IMG/VR virus record: IMGVR_UViG_3300009285_001861
Direction: 5' to 3' (one strand)
Source: an uncultured virus (IMG/VR IMGVR_UViG_3300009285_001861)
Taxonomy: Duplodnaviria; Heunggongvirae; Uroviricota; Caudoviricetes
Length of the DNA stretch: 62,019 nt
The position numbers were made by a program, and so were the translations under genes. Below are positions 26,599-29,814 of this stretch, one piece after another. Numbering within the stretch: the stretch's first letter is position 1; each line of letters begins with the position of its first letter. The notes under the pieces were generated by a model, which was not told the origin of the DNA, ran no database searches, and worked only from the letters and a program-made list of their open reading frames with translations.

Positions 26599-27153
26599 TC
26601 AACGCAGGGGGAGTCCCGTGTTTTCGTTCTTTTCGTTCTTTTCGTTCTTGCCCGTCAGGCTCAGGGGCTTCGAGGTTTCCTGTTCCGACACTGGGTCCTG
26701 GAACGAAACCCAACCGAACTTCTCGGCCAGTTCCTTCGCGGAGGCCCCGCCTGCCAGGATCTCGATGCAAGCAATTACTTGCTGGTAGGTGAGTTCCCAT
26801 GCGTTGGGGAGGGGAGGGTTGGGATGGGCCACGAACACTCGACCAGGGAACCGGGGTTGGTCGGGGAATGCCTCCCGGACCCGTCCCTGGCTCTCAGGAG
26901 CAAACGCGAAGGTGGTCCCATCCATGTTCTTGGACGTGAAAACAACGAGTGGGGGATCCTCAATCAGGATACTAGGGGTGTAGTTCCTGATTGTCCCGTC
27001 AGGCCACTTTACCTTAACGGTGACCGGGTAGTTCCCTCCATCCGTGGACCAGGAGACATTCAACGCCTTCCCGATTTCCTTCTCGAAATCATGGTCACCG
27101 TATCCTGGCTTGAGCCGGACACACATCCCCAGTCTGGCATCTTCGTTCTTCAT
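26599..27153 (-). CDS. Hypothetical protein; 9-bp tandem repeat (KNE x3) near C-terminus
   Basis: ORF from MKNEDARLG; TTCGTTCTT x3 at 26623-26649. Confidence 0.55.
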   Translation of the reverse strand: MKNEDARLGMCVRLKPGYGDHDFEKEIGKALNVSWSTDGGNYPVTVKVKWPDGTIRNYTPSILIEDPPLVVFTSKNMDGTTFAFAPESQGRVREAFPDQPRFPGRVFVAHPNPPLPNAWELTYQQVIACIEILAGGASAKELAEKFGWVSFQDPVSEQETSKPLSLTGKNEKNEKNENTGLPLR

Positions 27154-27223
27154 GTTCGTTCCCCCAACCACTCGTTACGCTTCTGTGCCCTGTTTCCCAG
27201 TGGTAAAGTGCCCATAGGCCCCC

Positions 27224-27970
27224 GTGTTCATGGATGAAAAGAAATGTTCAACGTGTGGGGACGTAAAACCATTGGGGGAGTTTAACGTCAAGACATCTAG
27301 CCACGATGGACATTGTGCCCAATGTAAAGTGTGCCGGAGCACAGCAAGAAAAGCTTCCTACAAAGCCAACCCGGAGAAGGACAAAGCGAGGAGTAATGCC
27401 TACTACAGGAGCAACACCAAGAAGGTCCGGGCTAAGTGGGCAGCCGACTACAAAGCCAACCCTGAAAAGTTCAAAGCTATAAGTGCTGCCAATTACAGGA
27501 CCAACCCCGAAAAGATCCGGGCCAGGGTGGCAGCCTGGGTGGTGGCAAATCCAGAAGTCACAGCAATCGCGCACCAACGCCGTCGGGACCTCGATTCCAA
27601 AAATGATGCTGGTATCTCGGATACGGAGATGCGGGAGACCATTAGGGATGCTAACAACATGGCCCTTGGAATCTGTGCTTATTGCTTCAAGCCCTTTGGT
27701 GAAACCGCCAAGAGTAAGCGAACTGTGGATCATGTCATCCCAAGGACCAAGGGGGGCAGAACGGTTCCAGAGAATGTCGTAATTGCCTGCTTGAGCTGCA
27801 ACTCCAAGAAGGGCAACCGCTCAACCTTCTCAATGCTCAATGTCAAGATGCAGCCGGAACCGCAGAGGGAATTACCCCCAGAAACTCCTGAGCGACCATT
27901 CATCATCATAAATGGACAGTGGCACCTTGCATCTCGCTTACCCGACACGGCCAACATGGTAGCCCCATAG
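27224..27970 (+). CDS. HNH homing-type endonuclease, antisense to its neighbours
   Basis: N-terminal CSTC/CKVC, repeated Y..NPEK helices, CAYC...TVDHVIPRTKGG...NVVIACLSCNSKK. Confidence 0.9.
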   Translation: MFMDEKKCSTCGDVKPLGEFNVKTSSHDGHCAQCKVCRSTARKASYKANPEKDKARSNAYYRSNTKKVRAKWAADYKANPEKFKAISAANYRTNPEKIRARVAAWVVANPEVTAIAHQRRRDLDSKNDAGISDTEMRETIRDANNMALGICAYCFKPFGETAKSKRTVDHVIPRTKGGRTVPENVVIACLSCNSKKGNRSTFSMLNVKMQPEPQRELPPETPERPFIIINGQWHLASRLPDTANMVAP

Positions 27971-28050
27971 GCATAGGCAGCCCTGAGGGCGGATCCCACG
28001 TTGTGTGGGTTCTTGGCCAAGTGAAGGCCGATGGCGGAGTAGCCCCTCAT
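27934..28050 (-). pseudogene. 5' remnant (39 codons) of a SpoU/TrmH-family RNA methyltransferase
   Basis: MRGYSAIGLHLAKNPHNVGSALRAAYAYGA matches SPOUT motif 1 (N.GS..R); similarity stops at the HNH boundary. Confidence 0.75.
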
Positions 28051-28166
28051 CCGTGCAATCGGATCAGGGTAAGTTTGCCCCGTGTACCAAAAGTGAAAAT
28101 GGCAGTCCCCAGCCAGGGCACATTGGCTACCTTCAGGAATGCCTCAAACATCATTCGGTGCGTCAT
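28047..28166 (-). CDS. 39-aa hypothetical peptide
   Basis: MTHRMMFEAFLKVANVPW...; ATGA-coupled at both ends. Confidence 0.45.
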   Translation of the reverse strand: MTHRMMFEAFLKVANVPWLGTAIFTFGTRGKLTLIRLHG

Positions 28167-28733
28167 GGGGCAATCTCCCAGATGGCCTTCCACCTACTAG
28201 CGTTGGTACCGGGGGCATCGAACTGGAGCCCAGTGGCGAGCCAGAGGTATACCTCCCGGGTGCAGTCCCGGCAGTAACGCTTTGGTTCCTCGGTGGGGTA
28301 GTCAACAGTTGAATGAGTGTACGCATTTGTCCTCATTTATGGAAATCGACCTTTGGGGGTCTCGATTTATCCCACCATCACCGGAAAGTGGGGTAATATG
28401 ATTCAAGCACCAAAGTTTCAGTGGGGGACCTAACTTGCCCGGACGTTCCGTGGGTAAAACAGGTTGGGTCATAAAAACTCTATTGAAATCAGAGTGTTGG
28501 CGATGTTGATTTAGTCGATGCCTCCGGGCCCAGACTCTTCGAGATCCCCGTTAGTTGGAGCCAGCACCGTCTGGCCCGAGGCTTACTGTAGGGGTATGGC
28601 GCGTAAGCGCCTCACCTGCACAGCGTCAAATCGGTCCCTATAAGGCTCATCCGAAGGACTTGATCCCAAGGGATAAATGAGTACGTGATCGGAGACGGTC
28701 ACACCACAGGCACGTCTGACTGTTGTCGTGCAT
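28163..28733 (-). pseudogene. 68-aa Zn-finger gene interrupted by a 364-bp insertion
   Basis: Removing 28319-28682 gives MHDNSQTCLWCDRLRSRTHSTVDYPTEEPKRYCRDCTREVYLW...EIAP*; start and stop are both coupled to neighbours. Confidence 0.8.
28319..28682 (+). mobile_element. ORF-less structured insertion element / candidate large ncRNA
   Basis: Direct repeat AATGAGT at 28312-28318 and 28676-28682; closing inverted repeat CTCATTTAT/ATAAATGAG; at least 6 internal helices, four using G-U pairs that form only on the + strand. Confidence 0.75.
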
Positions 28734-28921
28734 CAGCTCCGAAACCTCCCCCCATTGGCGACCACATGAGCCACGGTCTCCCAAGCCCACTGAAAGTCCC
28801 CGGTGGACCCGTCCAGGGCTCGCACAACTGCGAACTGGCATTTTGCCCCACAGATACGGGCGGGTCTGCCGTCCAGCGTCACCTTGGTTGCAATCAGGTC
28901 ATAGCGTTGTTCAATGTTCAT
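28733..28921 (-). CDS. Small hypothetical phage protein
   Basis: First gene after promoter copy 8. Confidence 0.65.
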   Translation of the reverse strand: MNIEQRYDLIATKVTLDGRPARICGAKCQFAVVRALDGSTGDFQWAWETVAHVVANGGRFRS

Positions 28922-28936
28922 TTAGTAGCCTCAACA

Positions 28937-28973
28937 CCCTATCGGCACAAGCAGGCGATTTTTTAGTGAATTC
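28937..28973 (-). promoter_or_regulatory. Sigma28-like phage promoter, copy 8
   Basis: GAATTCAC-TAAA-N15-GCCGATAG-GG. Confidence 0.8.
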
Positions 28974-28974
28974 G

Positions 28975-29814
28975 TCATGCCCCTTGAAAAAAGATGGCTA
29001 CCTGCTCGGCCAGGAATGTCTCCAGGTCCGTGTGGTTGGCCTTGAAGGCCAGCGGGGTCCCATACCCCAGGGCATCATCGGTATCGAATTTGAACCGGTG
29101 CCCCCCATGGCCCCAGCCCTGACGGTACCCATCCCCTGGGAGGGATGCAAAACCGTTCGATAGGGCAGCTGCCAGGAGCTGAAGTTGGAAGCGCACATCA
29201 GGGATGAGAGGGCTCCGTGTGCGACGGTCCAGGTAAGCTGTGAACAGGGTGGACAGGGGCAGGAGCCCTTCCAGGATTTGGTCCCGCTTCGCCACAAGGG
29301 CCGGTTCCGTCCCCTTCTGGTTCCAATCTTGAGAGACACCCAGGGCTGATGGCTTGTAGAAACGACGCACATGGGTGACCGCAGCTTTGGTGTCCAGGTG
29401 GGCAGCTTGCTGGTCCAGCCATGCCTGAGGTGGCAGGACCACGAACCTGACCCCCTTGGGGTCCACCATGCCAGGGTCCATCCGGAATAGGTCAGGTAGG
29501 AACGCCGTTACAACTGTGCCTACACTGGTCTTGGTTGTGGCAAACTGGTACCCAGCGGTCTTGAGCAGCTCGATCTCGGACTCCTTGTGGCCATGTCGGG
29601 ACAAGGTCTGGGCCTTGCGACCTGACCGAAAATTGGCCAGGAAGGGACGCATTTCGTCCTCGGTGGTCCCGAACTGTGCCCACACGGGACGGATAGCCTT
29701 GGTGTTGGCCTCACCCCCTTCCCACAGGGAGTCAGCCTGAAGGCTTCCCAACAGCATGGCCGAGAAGGAACGGGACTTTTCGCCAGTTCCGGTAATGATC
29801 GTGAGGGTTTGCAC
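28975..29814 (-). CDS. Hypothetical protein
   Basis: 279-aa ORF in gene chain, AGGA RBS. Confidence 0.7.
   Translation of the reverse strand: MQTLTIITGTGEKSRSFSAMLLGSLQADSLWEGGEANTKAIRPVWAQFGTTEDEMRPFLANFRSGRKAQTLSRHGHKESEIELLKTAGYQFATTKTSVGTVVTAFLPDLFRMDPGMVDPKGVRFVVLPPQAWLDQQAAHLDTKAAVTHVRRFYKPSALGVSQDWNQKGTEPALVAKRDQILEGLLPLSTLFTAYLDRRTRSPLIPDVRFQLQLLAAALSNGFASLPGDGYRQGWGHGGHRFKFDTDDALGYGTPLAFKANHTDLETFLAEQVAIFFQGA

Follow-up and report, generated by a model that had tools for sequence, protein, structure and literature searches.

A probable tnpB-less derivative of a TnpB element, with an omega RNA scaffold and IS607-like ends, in the genome of a huge phage

The window, i.e. the whole analysed stretch of 62,019 nucleotides, corresponds to bases 89366-151384 of a 485-kb phage genome (485,040 bp). 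Its segment 28299-28698 very probably derives from an insertion sequence with a tnpB gene, most likely one of the IS607 family, and has lost that gene by internal deletion. The insert lies antisense to a small zinc-finger-like gene, with the + strand as its structured strand, and is composed of a left end of ∼53 nt joined to the terminal ∼340 nt, with the deletion join located near 28352-28354. The right-end region (∼340 nt) was kept whole; its counterpart in the full-length paralogues coincides in part with the 3′ end of tnpB and is the source of the omega RNA scaffold. Judging from these sequence relationships, the RNA of the insert is the omega (guide) RNA scaffold of the same TnpB family, which makes the insert an element of a known type and speaks against the new ribozyme or non-coding RNA class put forward in the original prediction. 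As it carries no protein gene and retains both transposon ends, we regard it as a further example of the gene-less, omega-RNA-bearing “PATE-like” elements, a kind that has already been described. The largest ORFs within the insert comprise 38-56 aa (38-41 aa at most on the + strand, according to the ORF list), which agrees with the earlier statement that it contains no real ORF.

Other copies of the element were sought in the 485-kb genome with a single-sequence nhmmer search followed by a profile search. Five further copies or remnants with different flanks were identified: three with a gene for the RNA-guided nuclease TnpB, one solo right end and one remnant of 57 nt. Four paralogues matched the 3′ two-thirds of the element in the nhmmer search (E 6.6e-15 to 2.3e-23), and the profile search added the remnant (bases 2089-2145, E 2.8e-6). 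The full-length copies are located at 228 kb (c2, - strand), 48 kb (c3, + strand) and 254 kb (c5, + strand) in the genome sequence G000:C1, the solo right end, also without tnpB, at 340 kb (c4, 340476-340789, + strand), and the remnant at 2 kb (c6, + strand). The window copy (c1, + strand, no tnpB) is the most diverged of the copies; it is only ∼70% identical to those carrying TnpB, and no TnpB of its own lineage is present. Three copies interrupt a gene, c1 and c3 in antisense orientation and c2 in sense orientation.

Each full-length paralogue (c2, c3 and c5) has an ORF of 478-484 aa that terminates within the shared sequence: the final ∼300 nt of the TnpB ORF lie in the homologous region, which is on the same strand and extends up to the right end. 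Each of the three ORFs exceeded the cut-offs of Pfam models PF07282 (Cas12f1-like_TNB; 43-46 bits, cut-off 26.3) and PF01385 (OrfB_IS605; 35-36 bits, cut-off 30.5), and they scored 95-101 bits against the NCBIfam model NF040570 (guided_TnpB; cut-off 100). The scores obtained on the TnpB ORFs with the NCBIfam models IS607_TnpB and IS200_TnpB were both far under cut-off. Residues D245, E328 and D396, which we take to be the RuvC triad, were invariant in all four aligned proteins (the three paralogues and a 55%-identical phage homologue), and the tnpB genes of c2, c3 and c5 are intact. The nearest solved chains were Cas-phi-3 (E 2.5e-11) and Cas12f (E 6.9e-11), the match being limited to the C-terminal nuclease/zinc region. 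The clade of TnpB proteins of ∼470-480 aa comprised 396 proteins at E ≤ 1e-10 among 8000 scored, and its members are found mostly on metagenomic and huge-phage contigs, many of which are 100-500 kb long. A TnpB scan returned one locus in viral contigs and none in species-representative genomes.

The ends of the element were set by comparing copies with different flanks. On the left side, homology to the paralogues begins at 28296-28299, and the similarity opens at GGG(G)T in all four copies that have a left end; invariant columns run from 28296 to 28351 in the alignment of these copies, and 14 of the 15 positions of the 15-mer 28295-28309 are identical in c2. The left end (28299-28351, + strand) has its homologues in the 5′ untranslated left ends that precede tnpB in the full-length copies. 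It is preceded by a G-rich target-side motif, GGGG (28295-28298, + strand; GGG(G) in 4/4 copies with a left end), upstream of which the sequences are unrelated. Bases 28297-28298 are probably the core dinucleotide (GG) of a junction of IS607 type, and likely also the TAM for TnpB. On the right side, the derivative of the tnpB 3′ end and right end spans 28355-28698 (+ strand); it is now non-coding, and its structured part (∼28369-28698) corresponds to the omega RNA scaffold. It closes with an unpaired 3′ tail, AGACGG (28693-28698, + strand), the final GG of which forms the right-end boundary according to the comparison of copies: homology to the paralogues reaches 28698/28699, and the similarity stops within one base after ..ACGG(T) in all six in-genome copies. 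Related tails end the element in eight distant loci (chosen by eye). The 20 nt past the terminal GG are unrelated among the six copies, except for the first T, which is common to all of them.

These boundaries replace the limits 28319/28682 of the original prediction, which had delimited a 364-bp insert by two copies of the heptamer AATGAGT. Both copies of the heptamer (28312-28318 and 28676-28682, + strand) were confirmed by reading the sequence, but they are internal to the element, lying 14-20 nt inside the homology-defined left end and 16-22 nt inside the homology-defined right end, respectively. AATGAGT is therefore not a target-site duplication of the kind expected of a MITE. Since the homology within the family extends further on both sides, the 364-nt limits leave out 20-24 nt at the left and 16-17 nt at the right. 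In c3, a different repeat of its own is common to the left and right ends at equivalent places (by eye). The helix that had been thought to close the structure, formed by CTCATTTAT (28332-28340, + strand) and its partner 28673-28681, is an inverted repeat of the two ends of the element. Complementarity between the ends is also present in c3 (6 bp), c2/c5 (6 bp) and a further locus, L014 (16 bp), as judged by eye, and this repeat may be a property of the transposon ends as DNA, no less than an RNA helix.

The insertion divides the host gene (- strand) into an N-terminal fragment (28699-28733), with the ATG at 28733 and the first CxxC, and a C-terminal fragment (28163-28298), with the second CxxC and a conserved GLQFDAPGTNASRW motif. 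The C-terminal fragment is currently called as a 57-aa ORF, whose ATG (28336) falls within the left end. The overlaps of the host gene with its neighbours had been described correctly: the ATG at 28733 overlaps the TGA of the upstream gene, and the host TGA (28165-28163) overlaps an ATG. An HNH gene is located ∼330 nt upstream of the insert, on the same strand as its structured RNA; no tie between the two was found apart from position and shared strand.

Three junction rules were tried by deletion on c1, and two of them (GG core and CGGT) also on c3. The GG-core rule spares the left GG and removes everything up to and including the right GG; under this rule, deletion of 28299-28698 (400 nt) from c1 gave an in-frame gene of 171 nt that reaches the native stop, and the corresponding deletion in c3 gave an open frame of 186 codons through the junction. 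The junction codons are Asp-Pro in both c1 and c3, and the antisense host ORF was restored in both antisense copies. The IS605-style rule, with CGGT in the flank as well as in the right end, kept c3 in frame, but left the host gene of c1 out of frame (405 nt), and was therefore dropped. Deletion of 28319-28682 (364 nt) from c1 also yielded, as had been claimed, an in-frame gene of 207 nt that stays open up to the stop at codon 69, its last. Thus, two different deletions restore the host gene of c1, but only the 400-nt deletion agrees with the boundaries of the family.

An uninterrupted allele of the host gene, the empty site that the original prediction had implied, was found neither in protein homologue searches nor in the contigs of four sequencing runs from two studies: the insertion is present in these contigs with 0 differences, and none of them joins the host gene across it. 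A word-index search with the host protein retrieved only the ORF itself and one 85-aa protein with the same C-terminal motif. An exhaustive search added four matches, all of them FG-GAP repeat proteins matching over a short stretch, which we read as uninformative. Two viral loci reached via the neighbouring 279-aa gene were not syntenic downstream of it.

Assignment to the IS607 family is based on the junctions and on transposase sequences. In IS607 elements the core dinucleotide is strictly GG, and TGGG serves as target motif/TAM (available text of bioRxiv 10.1101/2023.11.20.567912). GG at the boundaries and a G-rich target motif were found in the genome analysed here, at all four left junctions and all six right ends. 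The flanks (1.2 kb) of distant TnpB homologues were also scanned for transposase genes, using the longer 47 of 104 ORFs of at least 80 aa. One of them, in locus L024, encodes an IS607 transposase (NF033518, 176 bits, cut-off 110) and is located directly upstream of the TnpB homologue, on the same strand; the other 46 are not transposases. One of eight distinct distant loci has such a gene within the 1.2-kb flanks. The phage genome itself contains a solo 151-aa IS607-transposase-like ORF (G000:C1:330856-331311), which scored under the cut-off (93 bits) and is degenerate, with Ala at the position where the aligned IS1535 transposase has Ser in the “RVSS” stretch. No serine-recombinase TnpA was found in any of the element copies of this genome, and no active-looking transposase elsewhere in it. 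The IS200/IS605 (Y1 HUH) family was considered as a candidate and rejected: the genome gave no match to PF01797 (Y1 transposase), CGGT precedes the left end in only two of the four copies, and the frame of c1 is not preserved under the corresponding rule.

The RNA-level evidence was obtained with folding and covariation analyses. The + strand of 28312-28682 folds with an energy of -138.4 kcal/mol (z = -3.58), lower than each of 100 shuffled controls, and for the - strand z was -1.36, with 11 of 100 shuffles as low. Two covariance models (R1 and R2) were built from five paralogues, and homologues were collected from metagenomic loci found via the TnpB protein; the window scored 84.8 bits with R1 and 123.2 bits with R2. 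In the first domain (39 pairs, 14 distinct sequences), part of which also codes for protein in the full-length copies, 21 pairs were changed on both sides, compared to 12.0 ± 2.0 in shuffles, and 87.7% of cells were paired, compared to 77.7% in shuffles and 36-49% with the partners slid. In the second domain (43 pairs, 13 distinct sequences), 34 pairs were changed on both sides (19.6 ± 2.2 in shuffles), and 89.9% of cells were paired (70.3% in shuffles, 32-43% with the partners slid). In these alignments, which were fitted to the models, none of 500 shuffles was as high as observed in either domain; taken together, 55 of the 82 pairs were changed on both sides. The family alignments contained 113 G-U cells and 29 A-C cells (9 and 3, respectively, in the window copy), from which it follows that the + (tnpB-sense) strand is the structured one. 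The preference for this strand expressed in the original prediction thus held.

The first domain contains a long covarying stem (28414-28490, + strand) consisting of three helices, 28414-26/28478-90, 28428-37/28460-69 and 28438-43/28447-52, in which 19 of 29 pairs were changed on both sides and 85-99% of cells were paired. The second covarying domain (28499-28627, + strand) is formed by 28502-22/28527-46, 28557-64/28571-77, 28578-83/28622-27 and the GTAA-loop hairpin 28588-602/28607-21. It is followed by a terminal domain (28631-28692, + strand) with a closing helix between TCGGTC (28631-36) and GATCGG (28687-92). RNAalifold paired the columns of this helix (266-271/322-327), with pairing-preserving changes between c1 and c2-c5, and in single-sequence folds an equivalent closing helix was present in the minimum free energy (MFE) structures of 11 of 13 family members. 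The plan of the terminal domain in these 11 is a closing helix around a variable hairpin, then a short tail ending in GG. In c1 the structure with the terminal helix has an energy of -12.6 kcal/mol, 1.9 above the MFE of -14.5 kcal/mol.

Seven helices had been proposed for the insert from its sequence, and all of them exist as complementary stretches, so the region is indeed densely base-paired; their agreement with the family is only partial. Those at 28427-70 and 28587-620 covary, and that at 28369-94 sits at the site of a family hairpin, but the helices 28502-08/28621-27 and 28520-82 are contradicted by the covarying helices of the second domain listed above. Of the remaining two, one is the inverted repeat of the ends, and the other (28343-68) is private to c1 and located at the deletion join. 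No Rfam family was found at gathering score in the whole window; at E ≤ 10, the region 28150-28800 gave two chance-level matches, and at E ≤ 1, the 11 family loci gave a tRNA only. A degenerate 20-mer derived from the RNA core had no matches in viral contigs.

A comparison of c1 with c2 indicates how much of the structure c1 retains. Among the 82 consensus pairs, 41 are unchanged, 13 are changed on one side and still paired, and 11 are changed on both sides and still paired; in the model-fitted alignment 16 are broken, and one is unpaired in c2 itself. Six of the 16 broken pairs belong to a single hairpin in shifted register (28369-94), which is misaligned for c1. In the part of c1 that used to code for protein, four indels (4, 1, 2 and 2 nt) set it apart from the coding copies. 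The first of them directly follows the codons for His-Ala in the conserved HAD motif, which shows that coding has been lost. All four indels are in unpaired columns, which make up ∼41% of the columns. This pattern fits continued constraint at the RNA level, but falls short of proof that the RNA kept a function once tnpB had gone.

The position of the conserved region suggests what this RNA is. TnpB guide (omega) RNAs are encoded on the tnpB strand, overlap the 3′ end of the gene, run to the right end and continue into the flank, as described in the available text of bioRxiv 10.1101/2023.03.14.532601, and since the conserved region has exactly this position and strand relative to tnpB, it is read as an omega RNA. 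It is encoded at and beyond the tnpB 3′ end, it has a covarying structure, and the scaffold is followed by a variable guide. By the rule given in the same text, DNA immediately beyond the right end on its 3′ side acts as guide, which places the predicted guide of the c1 RNA at 28699-28718 (+ strand), in flanking host DNA antisense to codons of the N-terminus of the host gene. When three substitutions were permitted in the first 16 nt, each guide had 1-10 further sites, approximately the number estimated to occur by chance. If it is active, the c1 RNA would bind TnpB and direct TAM-dependent DNA cleavage.

We propose that the + strand of c1 is transcribed and that the transcript is trimmed to an omega RNA, which would be bound in trans by a paralogous TnpB. 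The 3′ extension of this RNA (28699 onward) would then guide cleavage of the uninterrupted allele, recognised as the G-rich motif followed by the flank, and recombination with an occupied genome would restore or spread the insertion. Movement of the element would need a serine transposase supplied in trans. The chance that c1 still works as a guide RNA is put at about even, because no RNA sequencing run was found to contain the c1 stretch, a promoter scan of 27100-29000 returned no sigma-70-like sites, and c1 is the most diverged copy. A more far-reaching version, in which the phage keeps stand-alone guide-RNA modules (c1 and c4) that are loaded in trans by the three intact TnpBs, with c1 as a selected guide gene, is in our view rather improbable.

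A strong competitor, to which we give a somewhat less than even chance, is that c1 has the same origin but is an inert relic, a decaying leftover of a TnpB element with neither guide transcription nor mobility, the helices of which persist only because too little time has elapsed or because they had become fixed before the loss of tnpB. The genome without an active-looking transposase, the lack of a promoter-like site around the insert and the 16 of 82 broken consensus pairs are all consistent with this, the second solo right end and the 57-nt remnant show that the family is decaying in this genome, and an insertion with 0 differences in four runs from two studies is what a fixed, passive insertion would give. 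Against it, 24 changed pairs still pair, compared to 10-16 that are broken, and both solo copies (c1 and c4) retain the same RNA region of ∼315-330 nt. The position of all four frame-breaking indels in unpaired columns also suggests RNA-level constraint after coding was lost, although with four events this is a weak case.

The other two readings concern the nature of the RNA itself, and both are very unlikely. The claim that 28319-28682 is a 364-nt element with a 7-bp target duplication that represents a new structured-RNA or ribozyme class could draw on the AATGAGT repeat, which is real, on the clean 68-codon ORF with two CxxC pairs that is left by the deletion, on the z of the + strand fold and on the blank Rfam result. 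It is disfavoured because homology to the ends of paralogues continues for 24 nt to the left of 28319 and for 16-17 nt to the right of 28682 (14/15 in the left match), with the sequence on the right pairing with 28631-36 and covarying, because two of its seven helices conflict with covarying ones, and because the 400-nt deletion is equally in frame. What remains of this claim is a gene-less, non-autonomous mobile element with a folded + strand RNA; the RNA is of a known class, being homologous to the 3′ ends of TnpB genes and to right ends (nhmmer E 1e-15 to 1e-23).

Splicing of the host mRNA, which had also been entertained, is unlikely, since the gene lies on the strand opposite to the structured one and models of group I and group II introns gave no match. 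The related idea of an IStron-like element, the left and right ends of which together form a group I intron spliced from transcripts, as in Clostridium IStrons, would account for the complementarity of the ends in several copies, and IS607 and IS605 elements with TnpB that carry group I introns are known, but the introns of the IStron authors match the Rfam group I model (available text of bioRxiv 10.1101/2023.11.20.567912), whereas no group I match was obtained here at E ≤ 10 in the window region or at E ≤ 1 in 11 family loci, the left end is only ∼50-110 nt long, and splicing would be unable to rescue the gene in the two of three genic copies that are antisense.

Compared to the omega RNAs (reRNAs) of IS200/IS605 and IS607 elements such as ISDra2 and CboIStron, the c1 family shares encoding on the tnpB strand, the 3′ overlap with the gene, the run to the right end, and a multi-stem scaffold conserved up to the transposon boundary, where the guide starts. 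It differs from the known omega RNAs in its scaffold of ∼320 nt with no Rfam 15 match and in its clade of ∼470-480-aa TnpBs; c1, in addition, is without tnpB. With IS607 elements c1 shares the G-rich motif and GG at the boundaries. Gene-less IS200/IS605 derivatives with omega RNAs that need TnpB in trans, i.e. PATE-like elements, are described from Geobacillus stearothermophilus in the available text of Meers et al. (bioRxiv 10.1101/2023.03.14.532601). As far as that text goes, they resemble c1 in having no protein gene, both ends and a scaffold dependent on the TnpB of another copy. On the same basis c1 differs from them in its IS607-like GG-core ends, as opposed to IS605/Y1 ones, and in its phage host.

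The c1 family and IStrons have in common a TnpB element within genes and RNA structure over both ends, but no group I signature was found in the former, and two of its three genic copies are antisense. With classical MITEs c1 shares its small size, the lack of genes, the presence in several copies and the inverted repeat of its ends; unlike them, it has an internal 7-bp repeat, asymmetric ends, and a conserved part that is a strand-specific RNA structure. RAGATH-18-derived reRNAs of IS607 TnpBs, as presented in the available text of PMC11061315, are likewise conserved RNAs downstream of IS607-type TnpB genes; the 11 loci of the c1 family had no Rfam match at E ≤ 1 (the tRNA aside), with the reservation that the Rfam library may lack a RAGATH-18 model.

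With corrected boundaries, the apparent “new ribozyme” becomes a recognisable element. Gene-less carriers of omega RNAs are known; what is new here is a ∼320-nt omega-RNA scaffold that is backed by covariation and absent from Rfam 15, a metagenomic TnpB clade, and the huge-phage setting, in which guide-RNA-only derivatives of TnpB elements are now documented. The ∼470-480-aa clade is large and uncharacterised, and to tool builders it offers a candidate compact nuclease with a guide scaffold and a G-rich TAM. If the phage does keep stand-alone guide-RNA modules served in trans by its TnpBs, it would command several guides in the manner of CRISPR, though with no array, and these may be used in homing into, or in the exclusion of, co-infecting relatives that are without the insertions.

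The phage genome (G000:C1) was found to contain a second tnpB-less copy of the TnpB element, designated c4, located at G000:C1:340476-340789 (+; L002:1334-1647) and flanked by two plus-strand ORFs. The left end of c4 is absent and the copy starts abruptly within the former zinc-finger codons of tnpB; its RNA region is complete and the right end is retained. A right-end-only remnant of 57 nt (c6), comprising the terminal hairpin, the closing arm and the tail, was identified at G000:C1:2089-2145 (+; nhmmer E-value 2.8e-6). A sequence at G000:C1:419566 (+), preceded by GGGGG, differs at three positions from the 16 nt immediately following c6, a match estimated to be within chance expectation.

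The ends of the element were also examined in metagenomic loci encoding TnpB homologues. The upstream flank and the element are common to loci L018 and L019, which diverge directly after the terminal ..AAACGGA; this divergence independently marks the right end boundary. In L014, the 9-nt string GGTAGGATG occurs twice (at ∼1090-1130 and ∼2620-2650), at the start of the left end and spanning the junction of the right end with the flank, and the two ends are linked by a perfect inverted repeat of 16 bp. This arrangement is unaccounted for by a simple GG-core model, i.e. an IS607-type junction with a GG dinucleotide at both element boundaries. The element of L013 is apparently placed within a ∼25-bp inverted repeat of the flanking DNA (∼1090-1115 and ∼2660-2690); its insertion site may have been a palindrome or a different small element.

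The phage genome also carries a second TnpB family of a more canonical type, at G000:C1:254523-255233 (+; L005:1724-2434) and near positions 303 kb (+) and 305.7 kb (-). In two copies the reading frame is open over 451 and 428 aa, respectively; ∼80 nt downstream of c5, one of the full-length TnpB-carrying paralogues, there is a C-terminal fragment of 236 aa (NF040570, 217 bits). A solo IS607-transposase-like ORF of 151 aa was identified at G000:C1:330856-331311 (-; L029:2357-2812), with no adjoining tnpB. It is shorter than profile NF033518, scores 93 bits against it (cut-off 110) and, when aligned with the IS1535 transposase, has an alanine in place of the serine in the "RVSS" stretch.

Within the window, a 248-aa HNH endonuclease gene (27224-27970, +; PF01844, E-value 1e-12) is surrounded by a block of minus-strand genes and overlaps one minus-strand ORF. 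The N-terminal half of the protein contains approximately four repeats with a Y-x-x-N-P-E-K-like motif. The gene looks like a free-standing homing-endonuclease gene, and no connection between it and the TnpB element was found. Tandem 9-nt repeats are present at ∼26599-26800, near the 3′ end of a 190-aa minus-strand ORF; in overlapping ORFs on both strands they encode KNE-KNE-KNE, ERK-ERK-ERK and FVL-FVL-FVL.

The host-gene fragment downstream of each of the two antisense insertions, c1 (the tnpB-less copy in the window) and the full-length c3, receives an in-frame ATG from the antisense strand of the left end. These start codons (window 28336 and G000:C1:47058, both on the minus strand) are in an identical frame relative to the left end, and the 57-aa product at c1 is a gene call on 13 contigs (P0001).
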